A stretch of 63,260 bases of DNA, filler included, from Welwitschia mirabilis (GCA_051453625.1; 5 parts of one record of this genome joined end to end with filler, not necessarily neighbours in it), one strand, 5' to 3'. Counted from the first letter of the whole stretch, positions 28,121 through 63,260 are shown. Made by a program: numbers and translations. The notes: a model not told the origin generated them from the sequence alone.

Positions 28121-28220
28121 NNNNNNNNNNNNNNNNNNNNNNNNNNNNNNNNNNNNNNNNNNNNTTAATTAATTAANNNNNNNNNNNNNNNNNNNNNNNN
28201 NNNNNNNNNNNNNNNNNNNN
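28121..28220. other. Artificial scaffold-join spacer
   Basis: N44-TTAATTAATTAA (28165-28176)-N44. Confidence 0.95.
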
Positions 28221-38986: not shown

Positions 38987-39086
38987 NNNNNNNNNNNNNN
39001 NNNNNNNNNNNNNNNNNNNNNNNNNNNNNNTTAATTAATTAANNNNNNNNNNNNNNNNNNNNNNNNNNNNNNNNNNNNNNNNNNNN
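38987..39086. other. Artificial scaffold-join spacer
   Basis: N44-TTAATTAATTAA (39031-39042)-N44. Confidence 0.95.
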
Positions 39087-45899: not shown

Positions 45900-47260
45900 A
45901 GACGACCTTGAAACTATACAACCTAATCCTTCTTTCCAACAACATACTCACCAGCTTATCCGTAAGCCAAGGAGAAGCCAAAAATTGGCAAAACACAGAA
46001 TGGAAGTAAAGACCCTTGAGAGGACACTTCCATCTCCTACCTAATTAGAGAGCTTTGACAATGATGAAGATCACGGTTTATATCCTGTCAAAGACATCAT
46101 AGGAGACATCAAAACCAATGTAGAGATCATCAACCGCCTCTACATGTGGGTCAGAACTAAAACGACATTATTATCCAAAAAGGCTATAGTTGTACCTTAG
46201 GTTTTCCAATCCCAAACGGATCGTAATCTACCCAATGTCATCCAACAATTAAAGAGAGAAGTTCAACCACTTTGCTAAAAGCGACTTGACCTCGTCAGGA
46301 GACTTTGAATTCCTAGCACAAGACCCTATTTATCGTAGCATACCCATACCACATCTACCTCAAGGAACTGAAAGCCTTTGCATTGAGGAATTTACTAGTG
46401 AAATCGACCTAGTGGCACAGGTTTAAGCCTATTGCAATGTCTTCATTATGTTTGCTGATTACTGACAAGCTGGGATAAATTTCTTCTGTTGTTCCCTAAA
46501 AGGCTATACGTTAGACTGGTGTTGCAATCTNNNNNNNNNNNNNNNNNNNNNNNNNNNNNNNNNNNNNNNNNNNNNNNNNNNNNNNNNNNNNNNNNNNNNN
46601 NNNNNNNNNNNNNNNNNNNNNNNNNNNNNNCTGGTGTTGCAATCTACAATAATATTCCATATCAAATGCACAAGAATTATATGAAGCTTTTTTGCAAAAA
46701 ATTGACATAAACTAAATTGAAGAAGATCCTTCTTTGACCTTGAAAAACACCCAAGGCAATGATCAATCACTTTAGATTTCACCATTGATTGGACTAAGGC
46801 TTGACGAGCACTCCACCCACTTCTCGATGACAACAAACTGGTCTCTATATGTGTAGACAAATGTGACCTTTCCATGCACTTTAAAGTAGCCTACATAGAT
46901 ACTAGTTCTCAAGGCAAACTTTTGCAAGGTGTAGCGAAGAGGTTGACATTCACAAAAATTGGCTTATCTAAGACCCAATCAATGGCAAAGCATTATGTCT
47001 TGAATCCAATGATCAACATAACAAGACTATTGACAGCAATATCACAAATTGAATAGAGATCAAGGTGGACGAAATCATCAAATTCCACGAATGTCAAACC
47101 TCTCAAATTGCAAAATGGGTCAAACATCTAAATGAAATGAGAAAACAATGTTATCAGGTCACACAACAAAGAAATTATAGGAGTCATTTTCGTGATCAAA
47201 ATTGAGGTAATGCACAAGGACATCAATCTTATAGAAATGGTGGATTATACTCTGCTACCT
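45900..47260 (+). mobile_element. Decayed gypsy (probably Tat) gag remnant
   Basis: EEFTSEIDLVAQV*AYC...FFCCSLKGYTLDWCCNL (~46385-46530) resembles the Retrotrans_gag pattern F..SL.G.A..W...L; downstream sequence is low-complexity gag-like. Confidence 0.55.
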
Positions 47261-48232
47261 TGCTCACAAGCCCAAAACTCATAACTTGTGAGTACAAAAC
47301 TCATAACATGAGTGAACTGATTTTCAAATCATGCTACCGAGCATAGAATTCAAAGCATCAAAAGTGAAATCCTAGCTTCTCAAGTTAGGAGTCACGAAGA
47401 CAACACGAAAGTCACTCAGTTCATCTCAGCCCAAAATTTGACATTTCCTACATAAAATGATTTTCCGTTTGATCTTTGAAAGTGTTAAAAACTTTTAAGT
47501 TTCATAGGCTGTTGCGTGCACACACATCTTTCATTAGTTTGGTTCTTATGCTTTTTACGCCAATTAGCTTTGAAATAGTGTGCTCTAGTCTGACCAATGG
47601 ATGATCTATATCAAAATTCTCATTGGTAACAAAGCAATCTACATAGATTGTTGTACTAAGCTGATTGAATACTAAACATAATTTACCATGCTCAGTAAGA
47701 AGTGTGTTATCTACTTGAAACTGACCTACTAACCATCTCATGTATTCGACTAACCAAACCCTTTCTAGATCTATTTTGTCCACTATCACACCATTGTTGG
47801 CTTCTTTCTTGCCAATAGTCACAAAACATAAATTCTGGCAATATTTTGCTTTATCATTTGTGAGAAAGCTCCAACATGTCTTCAAGTTTTCCTTTGATAA
47901 AGAAAACTGTATGCCACCCCTAAAATTATGGAACAATAAATCAAAAATCTTTATAAAATTGGCATGAAGGACAATTTGTTTTCATGCATCTATGTTGCAA
48001 TTGCGAAAGGTTTTGGTTCCTTAACATCATCTTGCTGAAACGGTGTATAGTGGGGCTTTATGACCACCAATTGATTTTTGAAACCAATTGGGCATGCAAT
48101 CGCATGAACCCTTTCACCATTTCTTTTCATTTATTCTTTCCCATACTTTCTCTGGAGTTGGAGGGGGATGAACATGACTTAAGGCCATCACTTCAAAACT
48201 ATACAACACCAACAAATCATTCAAATTATTTT

Positions 48233-51055
48233 TGTGAAGTCAAAAAGCAATGAATCAATCATTCAATGTATTCAAAATCACAAAAATAAGGGCAACCTAT
48301 AATCATGTCCTTTGGTAAAACCCTCAAACGAAGATGAAAACATCCAAGAGAGAAGAGACAACCCTTCTATCCAATGTGCAAGGATCTAAGCCCTTTAAAT
48401 AGGGTAGGGGTTGTAATCTAAATCAAGCTTAAAACCTTAAACCTCACCATGCATTGTCTTATTCCTTAGATCTATTCATAGACGTCGATTTACATTCTAA
48501 ACTTTAATTATAAGATGTAAGTGGACTCCAAGGGTTAATCCTCCTTTACAACATTGCAGTATCACTCATTAATTCTAACACAACATTTGGCTTCAAACTT
48601 TGACAATCTCCCACTATAAGGCGAATCTACCTTCTCCATCCATGCAAAGCAACTAGATTATCAATTCAATGTCCAACATCACATAACATCTTGTGGCCAC
48701 GATACCTCCAACTAAAACAACCTTCAACAAGACTAAAAGGATTCTTGCATAAATCCACTAAAACAAATTGGATCATGGTAGAGAGTAAGAGCTATGTTGC
48801 AAACATTACAAACTAGAAGCAATATGTCATGATGCAGAGAGAATACAGTATGAGAGAATATCATCCTCCACAACAACACCATAGACTTATCCTAGAGACT
48901 CGACCTTGTTGGAGGACTCATTACCATGCATAAGTAAAGAAAAAGTTTTCTTTAAATGTCCTTTCCAATTGCAATTTCAGCAATATTGGTTGTTACTTCT
49001 TTTCCTTCTTTTCAGTTCCACTTAGATACGTCATGTCAGTCCTGGATGGAAATCTATATATCTGAGAACATTGTCATTCCTCCATCTTGAGAACACTTAA
49101 GACTTCATCATAGTCCATGGCAATGAAGGTATTTGCACTTATCACTGTCACTACATGGCCCTAGCCTTCTAGTAAGGCACTCAACAAGATTAAGAAGCAT
49201 TCATTGCATGAAACCATACATTTACCGATTGGATCGGAATCGCGATCTAGGTGATCTTGGATCATGCTTCAATTGAAGCCGATCTGGATTGGTTCTGGAT
49301 TGTCCTTTCATAAGAATCATGATTTGTAGACCTGAAGTCGCGATTTGGAGTAGATCGTACAGATCACAATCTGCACGATTTCATGATAGTGGGGACTGTT
49401 TTAAAAAGCTACCGAATAGTGCCTTTAAAAACACAATTTTCCCAGCACCGTTGTCATTTTTTCATCCTAGCGCTTCAAAAATTTAGACATCATTTGATAA
49501 AATCGAAAATTGATTTCTTTGATTGAATCAATTGCACTCTAGCACTGTTCTCTTTGGTAGTCACCATGTACTTTTGAACTTGGATGAGTTGAATGTTTTG
49601 AGTCTTTTGACTGTTTTGAGATGATGATTTATAATTTGGAACTCTGCATTTTTAAAGTTGTATTCACATTGTATGACACTTATGTGGTTGAAGGCTTAGA
49701 GTTTTAAGTAATTCAACTTTTAATTACCTATATGCTTGCTTTTCAAATTAATCATAACAGTGAAAATTGAATTATAGTTTTACATGTTATTGTCCTCACA
49801 ATTGCAAGGTTGTCTTTTAAAAATTAAAATATATCTATTTTTACTTTTTTTAATATTTTCAATTCGGAGTGATCTGGGGTCCACTTCGGAGCGATTTGAC
49901 GATCCAGAATCTTCAAAACCAAAAAGTGATTTGTGGTCCGCTCCGATCCATGCAAGTATCCCTAAAACCTTGAGAACTTATTGCTTCAAATTTGAGATTG
50001 CAGCATTAAATTGTGCTGAGAAATTTGGCAGCTTCTTAGATTCTTACATATCCATTTAATGAAGCTTTTTGTACAAATAAACCTTATTGCATTCCATTTT
50101 TGCATGGAAACACATGTCCATCTTCTTTAATTTTCCTACCATCATATGTTCATTTTGGTGCTTGGTCAAGGTTGAATAAGCAAGGTACCTTAGGACTAAG
50201 CCAAGTGCCCTTTGCTCTTAGCCTCAACCATTTCTCACCAAAAATAGACAAAGATTTGCTAGAAAGAGCAACACATCATCCTTTCTTATATAAGAGATCT
50301 ACGATTTTCATTTTGCATAGACCACAATCCCTTTTACCAACATTTTCAACAGTAGTTATTTTTGCATTCATTAGTCACATTGAATCAAGAATTTGTAACG
50401 AAAGAAAAACAATCAACTATAACTCTTAGCAAAGCTCAAAATACTCAATGTTGACACTGCACATTCTCAAAGATTTGCACAAATCTCTTCATAGGAAGAG
50501 TGGAGCTCAAACAACTGAAAGACCTCTTGATCCGACTTCTTTAGACATTTGCACTACCTTCTTGTTCATGCAATTAGTAAAACCTGTGGCTCAAGACCTA
50601 ACATTGTAATACCAATTGTTACAAAAAATTAGAGCTTGTGCACAACAACAAGAAGAACAATAAAGCATGAAGCAACAAAAAAGTGAAAAACAAGAAAATC
50701 CACAAGACGTGCAGATTTACATCGTAAAACCCTCAAAGATTTGAGGGAAACATTTACGAGAGAAGAAAGAGCTCTATTGTTTATTTTGTAATTGAATTTG
50801 TCACTATACAAAGTGCTAGGATCCAATTTGTTTAAATAGGGTTAGGGTTTTAACTCAAACCAATTTGGAAACATTAGATCCTACCTTTGATTTGCTTACA
50901 TGTCTTGCTCTTGCATTTATTCGTAGATCTAACTTTATGTTTTAGCTTTTAATTACAACATGTATATGAACTATTAGACTATAAGGGCTGATCTTCCTTT
51001 ACAACTTTACAATGTAACACAACTTCAACACAAGATTTGACTTCAAACCCTAACA
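48233..51055 (-). mobile_element. Non-autonomous copia derivative: two LTRs, PBS, gag, no recognisable pol
   Basis: 5' LTR 50617-51055 and 3' LTR ~48233-48605 share GTAAAACCCTCAAA, TTTAAATAGGGT and CTTCAAAC...ACA. Decayed iMet PBS (ATACCA ~50609-50614); PPT AGTGGGAGAT at 48606-48615 (minus). Gag remnants 48850-50400 include knuckle CNWKGHLKK. Confidence 0.75.
49216..49970. mobile_element. hAT-like non-autonomous element/MITE inserted in copia gag
   Basis: CGATC/GGATC-rich subterminal motifs at both ends (49225-49380, 49860-49950) around an AT-rich core; right end TAAAACCTTG (CAAGGTTTTA-type TIR); left TIR not found. Interrupts the gag remnant. Confidence 0.5.
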
Positions 51056-53250
51056 TATTGATAATCAATATTGGCTTAATAACACACAATCATAGTTCAA
51101 TTTGATCTTTATTTCTACATGCATCAATCTGTTAAGGTGCAATTAATAGTAGATTAACTACCAATGACACTACTTCTTGATAACCATGTTGTTGATGATA
51201 CCTTGCTACTTGGTGATTTCTTTAACCTTGTTTCCTTAGTCAATGACCTGAAAAGGTCCACATCTTCATTAGATTTCCATAACATCATGCATTTTGTTAG
51301 TGCCAAATCCAACCATCACATTGTTACAACCCTTGTTTTTATTCCTAATGATAACCATGTCACCTCTCCTATTTTCCACCTTGATTTTCTTGACATTACT
51401 CATAATGTTGTTGAATATGAAGTTCTCGTTTTGGTCTTCAAAGCGCTTGCGATAACCAAATACCACAAGTCTTGATCGAATGAGACTTATCAATTGATTG
51501 TTAAAGACATCATAGCCTCTTATCAATGTCAAACTAAGTGCTTAATCCATACGTCCAGCTTACTAAAGGCTGTTTATGTGAATCTGAGAAACATGAAATC
51601 ATACACATCCCTCATCTTGAAAACCATATCATTGATCTCATAGCCAATCTTCTTCCCCATCTTATCCATTGCATAAGTATTTTCCTTGCACCCACAACCC
51701 TATTCTTTCACCTCACTCGCATGCTCGAATCCTAAAGAAACTAAATTTTCACTAATTCTGCATCACCATGCTACCTACACTTTTACATCTACCTTCCCAC
51801 TGATAACTATTCCACTTACTCATCTAATCATATTGTGAATGGATTACATTGTTGAAGTCTTCACTACAAGCTACAAGATAGCATCTTGTATAAGCAAGCA
51901 TTTGGTAGTTCTATACCTAGATGTCTCGATGGAAACTAAACAACACAAGTTCTCCAAGAGTTGCCTGATCGAGCATTTGCTAAACACCTTAAGGCTTGTG
52001 TCATGGCCATGTTGGGCCCTTTACCATCACGCCAAAAGCCATGACTTCGGTGGACATTGGAACCCTTTATATTTACCTGCTTGTTGGGCTGGGCAGGGGG
52101 ATTGCATACCCAACAATCTCTCCCTCGATTCACACGCCAAGTGCTCACATGAATGTGGAAGCCACCGAAGAGACTCGAACTCGAAACCAGCCAACAACCA
52201 TAGCTCTGATACCAATTGTTGGACCCTTTACCATCACACCAAAAGCCATGACTTCGGTGGACATTGGAATCCTTTATATTTACCCACTTGTTGGGCTGGG
52301 CATGGGGACTGCATTCCTAATAGGCCAAATGTTTCATCTGTTGAGGATTCTTTTAACTGAAGATGGAAGCATCTTGCCTTCATCACGTTAACATTGTCAT
52401 CAATGCCAACTCCATGGAAACGTCCTCCACACCCAGTGTCATCCCTTCATTCCTTTGATCTCTCTTGGCTTTGATCTTATGAGAACCATTTCACCACGAT
52501 CATCCTCATGCCACCAATATATCAGTATTGCCATCGAATATTTCATTAGATTGGTCAAAGCTGTTTCACTTTGTTCTACGACTAGTAAAGTCATTATTGA
52601 CTTCATTGTATCCCACATCCTTGCTCTTTTTGGTAACCGCCAGAAAATGGTCACTAGTAATGGCCCTTAGCATCAATTCAAAGACTTCTTTAGACTTTGT
52701 TGTTGATACAATATGCAACAACCACTTTCGACTTAGCATTTTCTGTAGGGAGACAGTGAAGTAGAAGCATCCAGTAAGACCATCGTCTGACTCGTTAAGA
52801 AGACAGTTGGGTCCACTCCCAAATCATGAAATGAAAAAGTCCTCCATGTCCTTTAGGTGTATTGCACCACTTGGTAAACATTGGTGAATGCCATTCTCTT
52901 TTACCTTTGTCAAAGTCATATTACATATTGAACTTTCCATTCCCTCTTGTGGCATCAAATTGCAATTTCTTATCCTTGATAACCCTACTAATCCTAATGC
53001 TTGACTTTATAAGCTTAATTTTCTTGAAGTCCTTTGGCCAGCCTGTGCTTCCCATATTTCTCACCACCAAGCCAACATCTTGCAAACTTTTAATAAATGC
53101 ATTCAAGCTTGCAATTCCCTCCAGACATCCAAATATTCCCCACATTGGATTGCAACTTACATAATTCATAGCAAATTTTCCATAGAGGCATTCAGATTGA
53201 AATTCCTTTCTGGAAAAAATTCTGCGGGAGCCTACTACCCACACAAATCC
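51056..53250 (+). mobile_element. Highly decayed Tat-lineage pol remnant (archaeal-type RNase H and integrase)
   Basis: FHLDFLDITHNVVEYEVL and HIPHLENHIIDLIANL (aRH); LGFDLMRTISPRSSSCHQYISIAIEYFIRLVKAVSL...MVTSNGP (rve core). Same domain order as 34206-35460. Confidence 0.75.
52010..52322 (-). mobile_element. Complete TRIM (terminal-repeat retrotransposon in miniature), 313 bp
   Basis: 106-bp LTRs 52010-52115 and 52217-52322 (10 mismatches by my count); PBS TGGTATCAGAGC on minus at 52203-52214; PPT GAGGGAGAGAT on minus at 52116-52126; perfect 5-bp TSD GGCCA at 52005-52009 and 52323-52327. Confidence 0.96.
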
Positions 53251-54063
53251 TTACATTCTTCCAACCTGCCATCCTTCTTCTATCCTTTTTACCCCTTAAT
53301 TTTATCTCTCTTTGCTATCAGACCCCACAAGTTCTCTTGTGTAGTATTCCCACTTATTTATTCTCGTTTCTCTAACATTTTCTCTGTTTCATACCTTCTT
53401 ATCATTTACCATTCCCCTTCTTCTCTAATTTACCAATTCTCTTGAATTTCCTTTCTTCCCAATTTTCAATTTTTTGTTGTACGTTGTTTTTACTTCATTG
53501 CCACATCATTTCCTCTAGCAATCTTTTTCAGCAAAAACATCTGAAAACACACTCTTTTGCATTTGGAGTATTTTATTACTCTGCATATCGATTCATAAAG
53601 AGGGCCAGCACCAAGATCATCAATCCAGTACATAGCACAACATAGTCTAGCCAATGGTGTCTTAACAACAATGAGGCATCCTTGCAAGCTTCACGTTTGT
53701 GAGGCATGCCCTTGATTCACCAATAACCTCAACAAGAACAACCACATTTTCGATTCCTATCAAAGTCTTTGTATGTGTGCTTTACTGTATCTTAGAATGC
53801 CTCCAAAGAGGGGCAAAATTGCAGGATCAAAATTTAGTTTTCATAATGAATGTGGCATCATAAGAATCCGACCTTGTTCTATAGTTATTTTAGTACTTGT
53901 GAATAAACCCCAAAATCTTCTTTATTCGAATATTCTCTTGTATATTTTGCACTACGGGATTGTTGGATTCTGCTTTCGCCAATTATTATGCCTTAGCAAC
54001 TATAAGCCTCTTTGTTATACCTCAAATCCCATAGTTTCCTAAAATGCCTTTGTGTCTACCTAA

Positions 54064-54135
54064 ATCCTGCCATGGGCTTGATATCCTACCATGGGCTAGG
54101 TATCCCAACATAGGCTTCGTATCTTGCCATGGGCA
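54064..54135. repeat. Short tandem repeat, ~19-bp unit x4
   Basis: Units resembling ATCCTGCCATGGGCTTGAT repeated with substitutions. Confidence 0.7.
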
Positions 54136-56129
54136 TCATACTTCTTGGGCTTTTGGTGTCATACACCTGTATAAAGCCTATAACAGCTTCGAAGGGTGCC
54201 CTTAGATGCCCAAACATTTCAAAAACCCTAACTCTAGTGGCCTACCATGTCTTCACATGTGACAAGTCACTAATAAACTGAAAATTGTCTACAAATACCC
54301 CAATAAACCCTCATTTTTAAATGCTAATGATGTCATAATCATTCTTCCAATATCCAAGCTATCACTGTTATCATCTATCGAGCCTTAAAAAATCTTCTGA
54401 AACCCTTAACTGCATCATAACCATTCATCCATTGTCCTTAAACCCTTAGAGCAATCATTTTCCAATTAATTTGAATATTTTGGACATGCATGGGCTCTTG
54501 TAATGTTGTTTTGTTATTAAAAAACGACCTTTCTGTTTATTGTATCTTTTGCCATTAGTGTATTTTTATATATTTTTTTGTTAGAGCTTTGTTAGCTTTA
54601 ACATTTCAGCACTTCTTTAGCTCTTGCATTTCTATTTTCTGTTTCATTCATTCTTTAACATAACCTGCTAAATGAAAATGTCTATTTTTGAATGTTCTAT
54701 TGGGTTGGCCAATCATATTTTTGAAACTAATATCTTTAGGATTTAAGGATTATAATGATAGTTTGAACTGTTTATTTAACAGCTTTCAAATCTTAAACTT
54801 TATTTCAACGTTTTCGTGCTATGCTTTGCTAAGTAATGCCAATTATCGAGTGATTTGATTTGTTTGAGTTAATGTGTTGAAAGCTGTATATAATACATTA
54901 TTTTGAGATTCTTATATAATTTTGATATTGTTAAAATATCTAAAACAAATAGATAGACATATGTATGTTTTGGTTGTCCACTACTATCATATTTTCTAGT
55001 CATGATATTTCCAATGTTATTTCTTAGATGTTATATGTGTAGAATCATGTCTCGATGGATTTGTGCATGGGAAGAGTCATTTTCCTATATCTCTTAGTTT
55101 TTATGTGGTTTTGTTAATTATTTAGTGATTAGTCACTGATCTAGATTGGAATCTACCAAGGATGATGGGAGTTCTAGGTATGTGTTCATTGACCAACATC
55201 AACATTTCCCAATGACCACCTTAACCCTTTCAAAGTGACTTTTCTCAAGAGGTCTAAGTCGCAACCCAAACAATAAGTAGGAATGGATGAGTGTGAAAAT
55301 GTGCCTAGATGCATTGTACATTCACAAGTGAATCTCTTTCATGCTTAGGTTTACTAAAGATTGTTATCATAGCCTTGGAGGAGGTTGTAATAGTTTGAAA
55401 GTAATAAGAAGTGGTTTAATTATGTAGCACTTTTGCATGACGAAGATGTAGAATACTATACATAGTTGATCTTTTATCAAGCTAAATAGGGTGAAGAGCA
55501 TAATTTCAAGAAGGGTGCTTAGACCTGGAAAGTCTCATGTTCCCAAGAGAAGGAACAAAAGCCCATGAGTGCACTCTTATGAGTAAATACTACATAGGCT
55601 AGACTCTTAGGGTACACATGGTGTTGTCATCTTTGATGTTGACCACATCCACAAAGATGCCATTCTGTACCAGTTGTGCATAGTTAATTGTGTGAACAAA
55701 TCTATCCTAGTGGGTAGATAGATAATCATAGTTAATTGTGTGAATTTCCAGTGATTGGTTAAGTCATTAAGAGATCTCATAAAGCAATTTATTAACACAA
55801 CAATTTGTTTATTAAATGTTTATTTTATGGTATAGCAGGTACATCATCATCCTCCTCACTTGGATGGTTGGACACCATTCCCCCTTCTTCCCCGAACCTT
55901 GGATCCGGGTGAACAAAGACAAATGTTGCTAGAAGCATGAAACATCTATTTGTAGTTTCAACCAAACATCATCATTTCATCATTCATGGTTCGCGACCAT
56001 GTGGCATAAATTGGCACATCACAATCTACCTCTTAAAAGTGCTTTTCATCTTTAGCAATCATTCCATGTAATCATGGCATTAAAGACCATTCTTATTCAT
56101 CTTCTCTTCCTCTTGTAATACATTAGTGT

Positions 56130-57560
56130 CCATAGAATACTATGCAACCATTAACCTAGCATGTTTCTGGGCTTCGTTGTTATGTAGCTTTTGGCAAGTT
56201 TCAAGTTTATTTGTCCTTACTTTTAACTAGATATCAAGGTTTAGGTCTTTGACAAGTCCTACTACCTTCTCAATATCCATCTTTTGGGGTAACTAACACA
56301 AGTGCTTCATGTATCGATATTAATTATCATAGGCAGAATCACTTCCTTCTCAGACATTTATAAGGATTCAATCTACAATGAATGAGTTTAGTATAAATCT
56401 TGCATAATACTTTGTTGAAATTCTTCCATGGATGATGTTGGTTCTTTAAATACCTATCTATCTATGCCATTCACTATTGCATGTGTAGAGATATGAACTA
56501 GCAACGTCAATCTCATCATTCTTGGGGATTTGCTGAAAATTGAAGTATAACGTTATGACATTATTGTTGCCTTTGTGTTCACTATCTCCTTTGCCATGGC
56601 AAATAGTGAGGTAGTACTATTTCATATGGTTAGATTTAGAAATACCTTGCTAGTGTTCCTTTTTTCTCTCTTAATCTTTGCTTTCGTCATTCCTCTTGTT
56701 CTTCCTTTCTTGTAGTTTGAGATTTTACTTCTTCCTCTGTTGTCAGGAGGTCATTTGGGCCATATGTGATTCTTGCTGGACATCTCATTTTTCCTTTAGT
56801 TGTTCCCCATTTGTTTTAATTCATGATTTAGTTGTCCTACTTTATAGGTGTCATTTTTGAGAGTAGTCTCTGTTTGAATGAGTTATTTGCTATTTTCGAC
56901 CATTGCTCTTGTAAATATCATTGTCTTTGCATGAGGAGGCCAAAGACAAAACATTGTTTATCTGCTGACTTCTGCTAAGTGATAAAAAGGAAGAATACTA
57001 CAGATAGTTTGCCTTAAGTTAAACACTCTGACCTAATAGCTCACTGCTAGGCAAGGTGCTTGGACTTGTACAATGCCATTTTTTTCCCAAGGCAAGGTTC
57101 ATAAACCCTCAGCACACTCTTGCAAGTGTTGCCAGATGGGCTAAATCCTTTAGGATATAATGGTGTCCATATCTATTGCTGAGGCCACACCCACATAAAT
57201 GTTGTCCCACATTAGTTACTCACACTTCAACATGTGAATCCATTTGTTGTCTATGTTGGATGGTTCACCATGGAATACTATGTCAAGGCTTAGTAATTGA
57301 TCAAGCCTTTATATGTCCCTATATGTCCCATATAACATTGTGTGCATTCACCAAAATAATGCAATGAGCTCCTTTGGAACATTTGTTCTCATTGATTATG
57401 GTAGGAAATCAGTACCCAATTTAATATGTGCACACTCAAACCTTCAAACCAAGATTACTATTTACCCACACATTAATGCACTTGTTAAATGTTTATTTCA
57501 TATCATAACAGTGATAAGATCATCCTTGTTCCCTAGGTGGGTGAGGTTACACAATTCCTG
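56130..57560 (-). mobile_element. Possible very degraded MULE (MuDR) transposase remnant
   Basis: Minus-strand fragments in expected order: MHTMLYGTYR (cf. DGT.LYGKY) ~57330, HISTHAIV (cf. SWIM PC.HA) ~56480, RPK-like and CQKLHNN ~56180-56250. Weak, short motifs only. Confidence 0.35.
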
Positions 57561-58082
57561 CTAGAGCTGGATGACATTCACATCTTTCTTGCTTTCTCCA
57601 AACATGATGTTCATGTCATTTGTTGTTACCAATCATGTCGCGAAAATGAGAAGAGGCGTTAATTGAGGGTCTTTGTGGTATTGTTGAAGCATAGGCCAGA
57701 GGGGAGCAAACGAGCTTGGGTCTCTGTGGAATTGCTGAAGCATAGGCTAAAGGGGACAACATGAGCTCATGTTGGATGGGCTGGCTTTTTAAACAACGTT
57801 ATCTATTTGTTCTCACCATTTGTCATACCATTTGTTGAGGCTACCTCACTTGTATCCTAATTTACATCTAATCTGGGGGCTAGAATTGTCAATTATGTAA
57901 CTGCTGAGGTTGTATTGTGGACAGCATTTTGGTCGTTGGACAATTAGGGTAAATTCTAGACCAGCAAAAGTGTTGCAAGTTTCTTCCTTTTCATAGTTCT
58001 CAAATTGTTGTGGTAGTCCTTTTGCAATTGCTAGTTTTGAAACCTCAGGTTATTGATTTGATCAGTATTGTTGACGGAAGAA

Positions 58083-58270
58083 GGTGTCCTCTCCTCTTAC
58101 CACCTAATAGAAGAGATAGCAGGTAGGGCATTTTGTGCCACACAAATCCCCGGTGGCACTTGGGCTTAGGAAGTCTATTCCATTTTTTATGTTCCCCGCC
58201 ACTGTCAGGGTTTGAACTCTAGACCTCTCGGTTTGTGTGTCTGTGACCTTACCACTCTGATAAGCAGTCA
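58083..58270 (-). mobile_element. tRNA-derived SINE-like element
   Basis: Minus strand: TATCAGAGTGGTAA (A-box-like) and GAGTTCAAACCC (B-box) about 30 nt apart, followed by a non-tRNA body; no clean cloverleaf, TSD or tail seen. Confidence 0.6.
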
Positions 58271-58851
58271 TTGACAAATAGAAGTAAGATATTATATTAC
58301 TATCTGTTTTAAGATTTTTTGGAACAACCACAATCTATATTCCTTATTGTTGTTGTTCAGGTTTCAGTTCTTGCTTTGCTGTTACTGGTATTAAGAATCA
58401 TTAGAACTTCAACATTTGTTCTTTATTTCTATATTTTGTTCAGCTGCCAGCTAAGGTTATAAACCAAAATTTTATTTATTTATTTATTTGCACAGTGTCA
58501 TGGAGTTTGAAGAATATTTTAAAGTCACTTGGGGCTTGCATGCCCTGCAAGGAAATGACAATCGAAGGAATTGGCATTGCAGTCTCACTAAGTTGAAATA
58601 TATGAAACAGTACATTCGTGTTCTGGAAGATGAGGACACACTAGTTTAGGAGTCTTTTATACAGGCTTTGATTGGCATACTTAGATGGATATTATACTAA
58701 ATGACAGAAATTCAAATGACATTTCATCTTACACGATTCATGTTGATGTATTCTAGTTTTCTAGTGAATGAATTACTGATAAAAGAAAGCACAATCCATA
58801 ATAAAATGCAGAGTCAGTAAGCTGAACCTACGAGCTTGGAATTTCTTGCAG

Positions 58852-58918
58852 GATTGTAGAGGAAAGCATGGGGAATGGATTTGAAGATGTTATTGATGTA
58901 TATCTTGGTTATTTACAG
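58852..58918 (+). other. Isolated exon-like segment, unassigned gene
   Basis: TTTCTTGCAG| 67 nt |GTAAGG with open frame IVEESMGNGFEDVIDVYLGYLQ; no partner exons confidently identified. Confidence 0.4.
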
Positions 58919-60668
58919 GTAAGGAAATGAAACAATCTTCTAACAGTTATCCAATGATATTCTCAATGCTTTTTAGTAAGTCTGTGCTAAGTGAATAATT
59001 GATATAGCTCAGTAATTTTTGATGTTAAAAGAGGACATTCTGAATTGATGGGAGATGTCTACCTTGTTTCATAAACATTTAGATTTATTACTGTTTACTC
59101 CATTGTTACAAATACTCTGATTTGTATGTTCATTCATGAAATGGTCAGAATAATAAAAAACGTAAATTGATGATGTTGCTACTTATTTTTCATAACTTAA
59201 AACTTTTTGCTTTTTATGCTTGTTATATGAGATTCTATAGGGTTTTTCACTGATAATCAGGAGGGACAAACTTCTTTTATGTCTTGTTTTTCTTTTTGTT
59301 GTCTTGTGGGGATAGGTTTATAAGACAAAGCTGTTATAATGTTTTTCCCCCCTAAAAGGCTAAAGACCTTTGGTAGAATAGCCGATTTACTAAAAAATAA
59401 TTTATGGGACTGTTCTATGCAAGCATGTTTTAAAATGAGACCAATAAATTCACATAATAATCAAACTTATAGAAGTAAAAAAAAAAGGAAATAATGCTTT
59501 ATTTTGCTAAAGAAAGAATAAAAAGACTTTTGAAAACCATAGAATAAAAATAATCCCCTTACCTCCTCTCCTTTTTTTTAATCAAAGTAGAAGCGAAACA
59601 AATTCTCTCTTGTTTCCTACTTCATCATAACAAAATAATGTAGAAACATGATTTTAAAGGTACAACAACGGAATGGACAAAAGGCTAGAATTAAAGATTA
59701 TCTAAAATTAAGTGAAAATAGAGATTTGAACAATAGATTTGGATGTTGTAGTGTAGCAAAATTTCATGGATACATATGGAGTTTAATTTTGGAAACAGGA
59801 AAAAAGACCATCATAAAACATTTTCCGTAACAGAAGTCGGGATAAGAAAATAAGAACCTGATTTATTACCATTGAAATCTAATTGTCAAATGCTGTCCTG
59901 CTGATTTTGCGAGATGGTCCCACCTCCTTTTGTATTCTTCTGGTTGCCAACACTCCGCTTTGCTATGTGCCTTACGATTTTGCTCTATTCCTTTCCCTGT
60001 GATGTCTTTCGTTCAGTAATGCTTCCTTCGCATGTCATTTTTTTATGTTGGCGCTTTTCTTCCTCCTTGCCTGTGTTTGCGTTTTGATCTCTCTGCAATT
60101 GTTCCTTAGTGTTGGTCTCATCTTTTACGCTTTTGTATTGGGTGCGTTCTTTGTTCGAATTGATGTCCGCTTGTTTTTGATGACGCTTTCTGCATTGTTC
60201 CTTACTGTGATCTATTGTGTCAACCCCCTGTGTTTTTCTGATGCACATTCACTTCTTCTCCGATGCGCGTTCGTGCGTTAGCGCTTCTTATGATGCATTC
60301 CTTCCTGATTGCGATGCGTTCTGTCTGTGAATCTGATCTCCTCTATGATTTTGTTCTGTTGCTTCCCAGTTTTATCACGTCTCTTTTGAGGCGCCTTCCC
60401 TCTTTGCCTCCTTTTCTGTTTCTTCTATGAACTTTTATCCGCTTCCCTCCTTTTTTCCCCCTATGGTGCTCTTCTTCTTCGCTAATATCACCGTTATTAG
60501 TGAATCGGATTACAAGATCCGAGAAATGTTGGATCCGTGAGCGAATTTGGCGAAAGCTCCGTCAAATGATGGAAGATTTGAATTCTGGAAAGCTTCAAAG
60601 CACTAGCCACAAATGGAAATACATGTAACGAGGTTCCGAACTAGCCGCAAAGGGTACTAGATTGCAGA

Positions 60669-60746
60669 TATAAGTTTGTAAAGATTGATGAGCTTGCGCC
60701 TTATGTAAATGGTAGGGAGCTTGGTGATTTGGTGGGCGTCGTTCAT
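60669..60746 (+). pseudogene. Replication protein A 70-kDa subunit (RPA1B/D-like) fragment
   Basis: YKFVKIDELAPYVNGRELGDLVGVVH resembles plant RPA70B/D FNFVPIDELG.YVN.K.L.DVIGVVQ. Confidence 0.7.
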
Positions 60747-60781
60747 ATTCTAAAGCTTTGAATTTTATATGATTGTTTTTC

Positions 60782-60999
60782 TTTATAGCAAAGCACACTT
60801 GTGCCTACTACAAACAACTTTTGGAGCGGAATAAGCAGTGTATTCAGGAGCCTGCCACATTGGAGAAGTGCAATAAACTTCCAAAAAGCTGTTTTGCACT
60901 TGGCTAGCAAGTATTACAGGTTAATATGAATCTTTCTACAAAGAGTTAGAAATGCTTAAGCAGAAATCGAAGACTAAGCAAAATCTGAAAGTGGAGGAG
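60782..60999 (+). pseudogene. Mitochondrial ATP synthase subunit g fragment
   Basis: FIAKHTCAYYKQLLERNKQCIQEPATLEKCNKL (frameshift) LFCTWLASITG*YESFYKELEMLKQKSKTKQNLKVEE versus plant subunit g FVAKHG.SYY.QLLE.NKQYIQEPATVEKC..LSKQLFYTRLASIPGRYE.FWKE...LKVED. Confidence 0.88.
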
Positions 61000-61146
61000 G
61001 TGACTGGTGTAAGAGTCTAGATATGCAGCGCAAATATGCAAAATTTTGAAGATATCGAGAGAGTGATGATGGAAGCTGGACCGACGGATGTGATAATTTG
61101 CAATCATGGAATATCCATCCCTGAGGAATTGGAGGTGCAGTCTCTA
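61000..61146 (+). pseudogene. TSC10: 3-ketosphinganine reductase (SDR) fragment
   Basis: VTGVRV*ICSANMQNFEDIERVMMEAGPTDVIICNHGISIPEELEVQSL versus plant TSC10 ATGVEV..FSADVRD..AV..A..E.GPIDVL..NQGVF...ELE.Q. Confidence 0.8.
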
Positions 61147-61312
61147 GGCGAATCTGCGGATAGTGACTGTTGGCGGTATGTCATTCCGACGTCATACCTT
61201 AATCGGTCGATGTTCCGTGCGCTGCTTGATTTGGTAGCCGAGGAGTTTGGCTTCCAACACCTTGGTGGCTTGACCATCTCCTGCGACGTGGTTACCTTTG
61301 AGTGCATCTTCC
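61147..61312 (+). pseudogene. SAUR: SAUR (auxin-inducible) domain fragment, fused in frame to the TSC10 fragment
   Basis: RYVIPTSYLNRSMFRALLDLVAEEFGFQHLGGLTISCDVVTFE is the canonical SAUR core; the N-terminal VPKG..AVYVG part is missing. Confidence 0.92.
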
Positions 61313-61346
61313 ACTCCTCCGCAGCTGCTGCTGCTCATCGAGAGCC

Positions 61347-61898
61347 GTGGCTGTTGTCACCCATCATCCGCATTTCTTGTTTCTGCATTCAAAATCGAAA
61401 CTAAATTCAAGCAGCGGCACTAATCTCCCTAGAGTTGTCACCTCTTCTGCCTTGTCCTTTTTAAAAAAAAAAATGTTTTGAAAGACAAGGCAGCTGATGT
61501 AGACACCGAGAGAACTAAGATAAATGTCCTAGAAAATGCTCCAACTAGGAATGAAGCTCTTCTAACATTAACCAGTTGTTTAGAATTAAAGGGCATCCCA
61601 AGAAGCTGATAGATGAAAGATTTGACTACAACTTACAAAGCCAATTACTTGGCCACCACTTTTTTTGGGTGTCATTTGTGGGGCTACTGCTTCTAGGAAT
61701 TTTCATTCGACTATCGAAGATGTCAGCTAGTCTATTCTTTGCACAATTCTGTTAGGACCTCTTCTTACTGGTTACACACAAGCTTTAAATGATTGGTATG
61801 ATAAGAAAATTGATGCCGTCAATGAACCATATCGACCAATACTGTCAGGATTGATCTCTGAAAATGAAGTTATACTGCAGGTTTGGATACTACTACTA
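61347..61898 (+). pseudogene. CHLG: Chlorophyll synthase, intronless 5' fragment (transit-peptide-like region to ~QVWILLL)
   Basis: SSNINQLFRIKG / ASQEADR*KI*LQLTKPITWPPLFLGVICGATASRNFHSTIEDVS*SILC..GPLLTGYTQALNDWYDKKIDAVNEPYRPILSGLISENEVILQVWILLL, colinear with CHLG without introns; contains stops and frameshifts. Confidence 0.95.
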
Positions 61899-61972
61899 GT
61901 GTTGGAAGTGAAGCCAAATCTCTTGATGTTATTTATTCCTTTATAGTGTGACTTTATATATTTTTATATAGT

Positions 61973-62072
61973 NNNNNNNNNNNNNNNNNNNNNNNNNNNN
62001 NNNNNNNNNNNNNNNNTTAATTAATTAANNNNNNNNNNNNNNNNNNNNNNNNNNNNNNNNNNNNNNNNNNNN
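61973..62072. other. Artificial scaffold-join spacer
   Basis: N44-TTAATTAATTAA (62017-62028)-N44. Confidence 0.95.
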
Positions 62073-62289
62073 CTAAGCCTAATTGCAATTTTTTTGTTTT
62101 AAGCATTGATTACTTTTGAAATGCCAATTTAGGTAACCAACATAATCGATTCTACTTAATCTTGAATATGGGTATAGAAACTTATTTTATGGCATATTAT
62201 GATTATTTAGAAGGTTCAAAGTTTTTTTAAGTCTATTTTTCTAAATTTTCTTTCTCCCTTTTCTCTTTCTTCTCTTTCCATTATTACAA

Positions 62290-63260
62290 TACCAACTTAT
62301 GTGTATTTGATAGGGTATTTTGAGTTGTTTTACATATGAACTAATAGATAAATGGTTAGTCTCTATGACAATCAAGAATCAAGGAGCACAAGATGAAAAT
62401 ATATAGTTTATCAGATAATTCACAAGCATTTCATGTAGATAAAGATAAATTGTATTTTTGAATAACTATTCCTGCAAATAACAAAAGATCATACTAATTA
62501 AAGATGAAGAAAAGACTGTCATCTCCTTAGTCGTCCCCACGACAGTCAGGATGACAACTCCAATTGAGCGATAAAAAGACTTCTTTCCAGATAACTTTTA
62601 GATAAACTGAAGACTTCTGACCATCGTCCACCTGATCGTCCAGATGACACTAGTGGACGACATCTCGAGAACCAATTGACAACAGTTTGCATGCAGTTAG
62701 ACAAGGAGATAAACTGAAGCAGAACCAAAGTTATAATTATCTATCCTTGTCATTTCTTCCATCATCTGAATGACAGGCAAGACGACACTATTCTCTCACA
62801 CTTTTACTGAATGTTTTTCCTAGTTATCACCTCTTCTTTGCGACTTTATTTTGCATGTCAACTAGAGTTTTTCTTCTACTTCTCTGTCAGTTCCCTTTCC
62901 CTTTCTGTCTATAAATAAAGGTTTCCCTCTTAATCCCTAATCATCTTCAATAGCACCTGATATTCTCGTGATAAGAGATTTTGGAACCAAAGAACCATCT
63001 TGTAATCCAGAGAGACATTATCTTGGTGTTAGGCAGTGTATCCTCTATTGAGGAATGACTACTTTGTGATACAAATGTCTTTTTTACTTTTAAAATGAAT
63101 TATATTTTTTATCAATAATTGTAGGAACTTATCCCTTATAGTTTATGTTGTTTAAGATTTGTGACAGGTTTCTTTGATTATATAGATTATGAGAGCAGTC
63201 TTTGGCAAGATTGAGCTTGATTAGATTAGGTGCATCACTGTTTCTTTTCATAGATTAGTT
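62290..63260 (+). repeat. Athila-family LTR (runs off the window end)
   Basis: 63010-63070 is similar to 21808-21865 and to the reverse complement of 520-580; 63120-63260 is similar to 21925-22060; TATA-like CTATAAATAAAG at ~62909. Confidence 0.7.

Follow-up and report, generated by a model that had tools for sequence, protein, structure and literature searches.

The window, a 63,260-nucleotide stretch of DNA from Welwitschia mirabilis (GCA_051453625.1), contains a mosaic of about 1.3 kb in which pieces of host genes lie side by side, all on the + strand. Four of the gene identities are supported by computational tools: ATP synthase subunit g (ATPg), TSC10 (3-dehydrosphinganine reductase), SAUR, and CHLG (chlorophyll synthase). 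An earlier note on this DNA had claimed fragments of five host genes, closely abutting on one strand at 60669 to 61898. That arrangement was confirmed, with every piece on the + strand and near the positions first given, as were the four identities above, while the fifth, RPA70, reached no more than a weak match (E=0.11). The pieces adjoin one another directly or, in one case, through a 34-nt spacer at 60749 to 60782. Their borders follow from the points at which matches to reads of the parent genes end, which place ATPg from 60783, TSC10 at 60991 to 61145, and CHLG up to 61899.

The mosaic sits at the extreme end of a scaffold spanning 39087 to 61972, the last gap-free part of which is 46631 to 61972. 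An identical joiner, 44 N followed by TTAATTAATTAA and another 44 N, is repeated at 13529, 28121, 38987, and 61973, the last of these four artificial scaffold joiners occupying 61973 to 62072. Thus, the window is a chain of unplaced scaffolds and not a single locus, and the DNA past 62072 is from a different scaffold, unrelated to the mosaic.

Stop-to-stop frames of the + strand were scanned against profile libraries, and copies and parent genes were traced through public sequencing runs, four of which (X1, X6, X11, and X18) were aligned to 56000 to 61972 at 80% likeness. X1 is a DNA run from organism A and X6 a DNA run from organism B. X11 consists of contigs guessed to be RNA, and X18 is one oligo-dT RNA-seq run whose reads are from the same species as the window. 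A six-frame Pfam scan of 54001 to 61972, with stops read as X, recovered SAUR alone, indicating that such a scan is insensitive on long read-throughs. Rfam and tRNA scans of 57500 to 61972 returned no match.

The leftmost piece (60669 to 60748, + strand) is plausibly RPA70-like, judging by its sequence. TIGR00617 rpa1 was the sole NCBIfam family at E≤1, the match lying at a plausible location within the profile (positions 293 to 320 of 608), and a longer read-through of the piece returned the same family at E=0.22. No usable result for this piece came from Pfam, PDB, the word-index protein search, or the Atlas: the PDB sequence search produced one chance match (E=1.4), the word-index search yielded one candidate and scored none, and the Atlas look-alikes, bacterial transposase clusters below recognition level, were taken as chance. 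The spacer, also on the + strand, separates the RPA70-like match from the ATPg read border and was assigned no parent.

The ATPg piece (60783 to 60999, + strand) corresponds to about 217 nt of mRNA. It matches Pfam family PF04718 at E=0.0035, under the curated cut-off, and reads of its parent are abundant, with 115 RNA reads carrying loose ends before 60783. Near 60879 the piece is frameshifted, the RNA reads showing one additional parental C behind this position. A candidate splice donor or intron remnant at 60917 to 60930 was rejected, as 71+43 ATPg mRNA reads pass through it as coding sequence, with two transitions.

The TSC10 piece is 155 nt long (60991 to 61145, + strand), and its borders are sharply defined by RNA reads, 131 of them having loose ends before 60991 and 122 past 61145; an X11 contig with a depth of 158.7 ends exactly at both. 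A 50-amino-acid query from this region (61021 to 61170) was searched against 1.84 billion proteins and returned only four at E≤0.001. Two of the four were repeat proteins (chitin-binding and zinc-finger arrays) and were treated as compositional. The remaining two, P0003 and P0004, are short-chain dehydrogenases (SDRs), to which BLASTP aligned the piece with 43 to 45% identity over 42 amino acids (E values of 2e-14 and 6e-14). The name TSC10 comes from the source record of P0004 alone, "3-dehydrosphinganine reductase TSC10A-like", because NCBIfam, run on P0003 and P0004, placed generic SDR families first and does not separate TSC10 from other SDRs. The stretch comprising the ATPg tail and TSC10 had no match in a PDB sequence search, and the word-index protein search with the TSC10 and SAUR frame gave three candidates, none of them scored. 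Among the matches listed, the piece has at least 12 differences from its parent mRNA over 155 nt (at least 7.7%). One of the sites that set it apart is 61018, where all 87+83 parent RNA reads carry C, so that the parent has CAG in place of the mosaic's TAG (61018 to 61020). By eye, the unmatched tails of the reads continue as coding sequence of the same proteins, and those of TSC10 resemble the flanking residues of P0004.

SAUR is represented by the C-terminal half of its domain (61165 to 61330, + strand), with a right border that falls within 61311 to 61349. Pfam family PF02519 matches here at E=1.9e-14, over approximately 61165 to 61308 and profile positions 44 to 91 of 95. Few RNA reads cover this piece, and they are diverged (10+3 at 61203).

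The ATPg tail, TSC10, and SAUR had been described as joined in frame, and they are indeed read in a single frame, 60925 to 61404, with the TAG at 61018 as its one stop. At the join between ATPg and TSC10, matches to TSC10 reads start at 60991, and the ATPg reading (KVEE) continues for 9 nt beyond that point. It is possible that up to 9 nt of letters are shared at this switch, an ATPg loose end being absent among the matches listed.

The CHLG piece is the longest (61349 to 61899, + strand) and extends from the 5' region of its mRNA as far as approximately codon 180. The NCBIfam profile TIGR02056 ChlG matches 61626 to 61898, read through one stop, at E=3.6e-41, scoring well above the other prenyltransferases, and Pfam UbiA matches at E=2.8e-11. 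Decay is evident from five extra A in the run at 61464 to 61474, two 1-nt deletions, and one in-frame stop. Over 61486 to 61899, the piece matches an mRNA-like contig (depth 93; X11 record 14) as one colinear block, with 38 differences over 414 nt (9.2%) and two one-letter gaps, and reads with the parent letter at 61437 (60+47) reach a depth similar to that of the contig. Fifty-eight of 61 RNA reads are without five letters at 61460, in the A-run; the parent thus lacks five of the run's A, which restores the parental CHLG frame. We considered this run of 11 A as a poly(A) remnant behind SAUR and rejected it, since it lies within the CHLG mRNA and parent reads pass through it. Nine cDNA molecules start at 61349, within the CHLG match, which suggests that transcription of the parent gene starts there, inside the piece. 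In line with the earlier description of this piece as an intronless 5' part of the mRNA, it reaches into the 5' region and is colinear with one mRNA-like contig over 414 nt. Past 61899, 102 RNA reads continue in a manner unlike the window. A paralog (X1 record 5) matches 61509 to 61899 at 88% and then extends for 454 more letters, indicating that CHLG originally contributed about 1 kb or more.

The mosaic is not confined to one assembly, as 14 of 24 listed runs, from five studies, contain the stretch or part of it; no RNA run was among the index-listed runs that match it. Contigs identical to the window have depths of 4 to 7 (X1 records 1, 3, and 6; X6 records 17 and 19), and a 100% identical X1 contig covers 61557 to 61924. 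In organism B, X6 record 19 is a near-identical copy over 60683 to 61123, with 5 differences in 441 and two junctions spanned. Diverged copies are represented by DNA contigs over 60667 to 61123 (X6 record 18, 47 differences) and 61211 to 61534 (X6 record 21, 44 differences), and by contigs over 60751 to 61263 (X11 record 12, 37 differences and 18 gaps) and 60284 to 60770 (X1 record 2, approximately 90% alike). Summed depth over 60000 to 61799 is 14 to 43 in X1 and 7 to 38 in X6, values that are not copy numbers.

Some copies are rearranged. One variant (X1 record 4 and X6 record 20) has ATPg only at 60809 to 60937, then 43 other letters, then 61243 to 61344. Its ATPg segment has unmatched letters on each side, and it could be either a deletion derivative or an exon with intron flanks. 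A second deletion variant connects 61155 to 61240. Because copies that are 86 to 92% alike and carry two organism labels have the same junctions, the mosaic was probably formed once and duplicated afterwards. The divergence of the TSC10 and CHLG pieces from their parents is similar, which fits a single event.

These copies bear on whether the mosaic could be an artefact of assembly or contamination, for example cDNA reads misjoined at a scaffold end. The draft is rich in gaps and the mosaic lies at the tip of an unplaced scaffold, which would suit such an origin, but we regard it as extremely improbable: the stretch or parts of it recur across the runs and studies counted above, the near-identical organism B contig and the diverged paralogs span the same junctions, and the mosaic is 8 to 10% removed from the expressed mRNAs and so was not built of them.

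The copy in the window appears to be silent. The 1,699 X18 RNA reads that aligned divide into 43, 110, 648, and 898 at 99% or more, 95 to 99%, 90 to 95%, and less than 90% likeness to the window, respectively, so nearly all of them stem from related genes and not from the window copy. At the diagnostic sites, all X18 reads carry the parent letter (120+103 at 60797, 87+83 at 61018, and 73+46 at 61500); in this one RNA run, then, neither expression of the window copy nor its co-transcription with a carrier was visible at these sites. X11 is uninformative on expression of the copy, being only guessed to be RNA and covering the non-genic flanks at a depth of 4 to 5. In a selected sample of 27 sites at which RNA and window differ (60797 to 61507, from the best 40 of 765 rows), 15 are transitions with A/T in the mosaic and G/C in the parent, 6 are transitions in the reverse direction, and 6 are transversions. 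A methylated pseudogene is expected to show such an excess of G/C-to-A/T transitions.

The pieces are colinear with mature mRNAs, CHLG as one block and ATPg and TSC10 with reads that are continuous across the pieces. Judged against the parent mRNA reads, no intron remnant was found in the pieces of the mosaic. Together, mRNA colinearity and the lack of intron remnants favor a mosaic that was copied from RNA with template switches. From barley CHLG and general knowledge, we infer that the CHLG, ATPg, and TSC10 parents have introns in the copied spans. According to excerpts of the barley study (PMC11288739), CHLG has 377 codons in 15 exons, exon 8 containing residue 212; with this structure, a copy reaching from the mRNA start to about codon 180 should cross some six introns. 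For dicots, the pea ChlG paper gives no CHLG exon count.

To the left of the mosaic, contig depth and X6 record 15 delimit an AT-rich, moderately repeated block (59174 to 59922, no strand assigned) with a sharp left edge, TGTTG, which resembles an LTR end. Depth is single-copy over 58400 to 58999 and then climbs, the summed depth over 59200 to 59799 being 44 to 76 in X1 and 56 to 72 in X6, compared to 4 to 7 for the window-identical contigs. X6 record 15 aligns from 59174 onward, and its first 139 letters match nothing. This block may be an LTR or an unrelated neighboring repeat, the latter being suggested by its patchy depth and by one paralog that shares sequence only from 60284. At 59921, CA followed by nine pyrimidines forms a PPT-like string on the minus strand, the sole such site bordering the AT-rich block and one of three strings of this kind in a pyrimidine-rich region; it would place the LTR on the opposite strand and make the mosaic antisense to the element. 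On the + strand, there was no convincing TGG-type PBS after a CA end. A mosaic antisense to a minus-strand LTR would fit poorly with simple switching inside a particle, an observation that runs against a reading modeled on the maize element Bs1. The earlier note had proposed serial template switching at the RNA level during LTR reverse transcription, or a retroposed chimeric transcript. The RNA origin is supported by mRNA colinearity and the lack of intron remnants. The LTR particle is a putative agent; the flank offers one TG edge and no PBS on the + strand.

Between this block and the mosaic is a pyrimidine-rich block (59923 to 60500, no strand assigned) with 67 to 80% C+T on the + strand, measured per 100 nt, which is partly common to paralog copies (X1 record 2 from 60284). 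It had no Pfam match in six frames and no tandem repeats, the only such arrays being two of 9 nt further left. Across 54 to 62 kb, no transposase or reverse transcriptase (RT) domain was detected by six-frame Pfam, a scan that is insensitive on long read-throughs. Ten upstream ORFs that by eye resembled retroelement remnants yielded a weak BNR match as their only Pfam family and were dropped. A candidate CACTA end at 59746 to 59753 was likewise rejected, with the motif at chance level (4 matches versus 1.9 expected). No inverted-repeat partner was found in 50000 to 63260, nor any self-match, and the 3' end of the carrier is absent.

On the right, the CHLG piece is cut by the start of a nested, very-high-copy element (61900 to 61972, + strand, beginning TGTTGG), recognized by summed depth and loose ends and running to the scaffold end. 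Its summed depth in the last bin is 1.4e5 in X1, 2.2e5 in X6, and 7.8e4 in X11. Loose ends before 61900 number 113, 93, and 66 and agree at a level of 0.38 to 0.39, meaning that many different flanks precede the element; it is thus a dispersed repeat, here inserted within CHLG. Its presence explains why the scaffold ends there, and with CHLG cut at 61900 and the scaffold ending at 61972, the 3' side of the carrier is missing.

These flanks and borders also bear on DNA-level capture, in which a Helitron or a Pack-type TIR transposon (MULE or CACTA) would have picked up the fragments and later amplified. Such carriers, as treated in parts of PMC13317346, hold several unrelated gene fragments in small families, and the mosaic resembles them in that it, too, forms a small repeat family with several such fragments on a single strand. 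The variant's lone ATPg segment, if an exon with intron flanks, and the pyrimidine-rich block upstream of the mosaic would also suit this origin. However, Pack-MULE, Pack-CACTA, and Helitron captures are expected to retain introns and to have TIRs or Helitron ends, whereas the pieces here follow spliced mRNAs and abut without intron remnants. The 13 kb searched holds no inverted-repeat partner or self-match, the CACTA motif occurs at chance level, and the left repeat edge, TGTTG, is neither TC nor a known TIR. We therefore consider DNA-level capture improbable.

The reading that we prefer, and hold to be probable, is an old, dead chimeric retro-sequence in which spliced mRNAs were copied by an RT with at least four switches and then duplicated, likely with an LTR vehicle of the Bs1 kind. 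That an RT made the joins, and what kind of carrier was involved, we infer from the features described above. Under this model, an RT would have copied spliced host mRNAs while switching template at least four times. The switches would have joined, in the same sense, an RPA70-like segment, about 217 nt of ATPg, 155 nt of TSC10, the C-terminal half of SAUR, and at least 550 nt of CHLG. Having formed once, the mosaic would have been duplicated, with roughly 400 nt or more of flank, into several copies, which would then have diverged by 8 to 14% and lost segments. The most likely vehicle would be a nonautonomous LTR-type retroelement of the Bs1 kind, and the window copy would later have been hit by the very abundant element at 61900. 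A stronger version is tentative and, in our estimate, rather doubtful: all five pieces may have been joined in one RT event (at least four to five switches in one particle) and spread nonautonomously, with ATPg-TSC10-SAUR, a frame with two in-frame joins and one later stop, as the remnant of a hybrid protein that was once expressed.

Template jumps by LINE-type RTs occur at the template's 5' end, and Wang et al. reportedly described LINE-mediated or plant chimeric retrogenes in 2006. Target-primed reverse transcription of this type would also act on RNA and could have produced a near-full-length CHLG processed pseudogene, whose copies were later duplicated or carried as passengers of a repeat. 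Several observations agree with this: CHLG reaches the 5' region of its mRNA, at 61349, where nine molecules begin; the paralog runs 454 letters past 61899, for a CHLG part of about 1 kb or more; and the LTR features that were searched for yielded none that could be verified. A further resemblance to a LINE chimera is that the mosaic has an intron-free copy that extends to an mRNA's 5' end and is preceded by copies of other RNAs, fused to it in the same orientation. Unlike such chimeras, its switches lie mostly inside mRNAs, three of the four being internal and recurring every 80 to 220 nt, which is more typical of a retrovirus-like RT as portrayed in sections of PMC5131818. The presence of several dispersed copies with deletions also speaks against a LINE, and we judge this origin unlikely, though less so than DNA-level capture.

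The chimeric retro-sequence of the preferred model can be compared to two described systems. One is Bs1 of maize, an LTR element that, according to parts of a 2026 review (PMC13317346), has taken up segments of three host genes and is present in one to five copies with identical switch points. The mosaic resembles Bs1, as characterized there, in that partial pieces of unrelated host genes are joined within a low-copy repeat and in that a hybrid reading frame is present, here ATPg, TSC10, and SAUR in one frame. It differs in having five parents, four of them firmly identified, in contrast to three. Bs1 is also transcribed and translated, whereas the mosaic copy has no reads of its own and contains stops and frameshifts, and Bs1 lies in an LTR element, while LTRs at the mosaic are only putative (one TG edge).

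The second system is LTR-mediated retrocopies. Sections of Tan et al. (2016; PMC5131818) give as their marks mRNAs copied in part, several parent genes, joins with microsimilarity, and co-transcription with the element; secondary copies keep identical switch points. The mosaic is like those retrocopies, as far as these sections describe them, in its partial mRNAs, several parents, more than two switches, and secondary copies, and possibly in microsimilarity at one join. It is unlike them in that theirs are young, have LTR-element sequence on both sides, and are co-transcribed. We have filed the mosaic as working like LTR-mediated chimeric retrocopies, as partial copies, several parents, and secondary copies were all found; its membership in this class is putative.

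The locus is a dead, silent pseudogene cluster. It exemplifies a known process, with an unusually large number of parents, and not a new mechanism. If confirmed on a complete copy, this plant retro-mosaic would exceed Bs1 in its number of parent genes. It would then also document, in a natural setting, the frequency and the positions at which an RT switches between cellular mRNAs, with one switch near an mRNA 5' end and three internal ones, spaced every 80 to 220 nt. If confirmed, the mosaic would bear on exon shuffling by retroelements.

Within the mosaic, a head-to-tail series of intron-free gene pieces on the + strand, positions 60925-61404 form a single reading frame that passes through two joins and takes in the ATPg tail, TSC10, and SAUR. 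The sole break in this frame is a TAG at 61018, where the parent, the expressed host gene whose mRNA matches the piece, reads CAG. Two in-frame joins would be expected by chance in about 1 in 9 cases. Diverged paralogous copies of the mosaic bearing deletions were found under both organism labels of the public DNA runs. One deletion (60937-61243) removes 305 nt, with 43 other letters in their place and TSC10 lost, and another (61155-61240) removes 84 nt and with them the first part of SAUR.

On the left of the mosaic lies a pyrimidine-rich block of approximately 600 nt (59923-60500; 67 to 80% pyrimidine on the + strand), in which we found no tandem structure and no protein match; part of it is common to the paralogs. 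On the right, 61900-61972 is the beginning of a dispersed element starting TGTTGG. In three runs its contig depths add up to about 1e5, a figure that is not a copy number, and it has many left flanks that differ from one another. This element is also contained in RNA reads, at a depth of 70 to 81.

The same artificial joiner (N44, TTAATTAATTAA, N44) occurs at 13529-13628, 28121-28220, 38987-39086, and 61973-62072. From these identical joiners it follows that the window was made by stringing unplaced scaffolds together, and no feature should be read across the four sites. A separate gap of 100 N's at 46531-46630 has the same 15 letters on either side, which suggests a hidden overlap with no sequence missing.

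A short high-copy element of approximately 165 nt (58111-58277) was identified by a summed depth of 1500 to 3500 in DNA runs, again not a copy number. Rfam and tRNA scans of the element gave no match, RNA reads of it are present, and AT-rich, unlike flanks follow behind 58274-58277. It may be a SINE or a MITE. Single-copy sequence at 58840-58926, preceded by AG and followed by GTAAGG, resembles an exon, with no Pfam match and a few RNA reads over it (depth 2.6/0.6 in 58800-58999). This stretch may be part of a host gene adjoining the mosaic.
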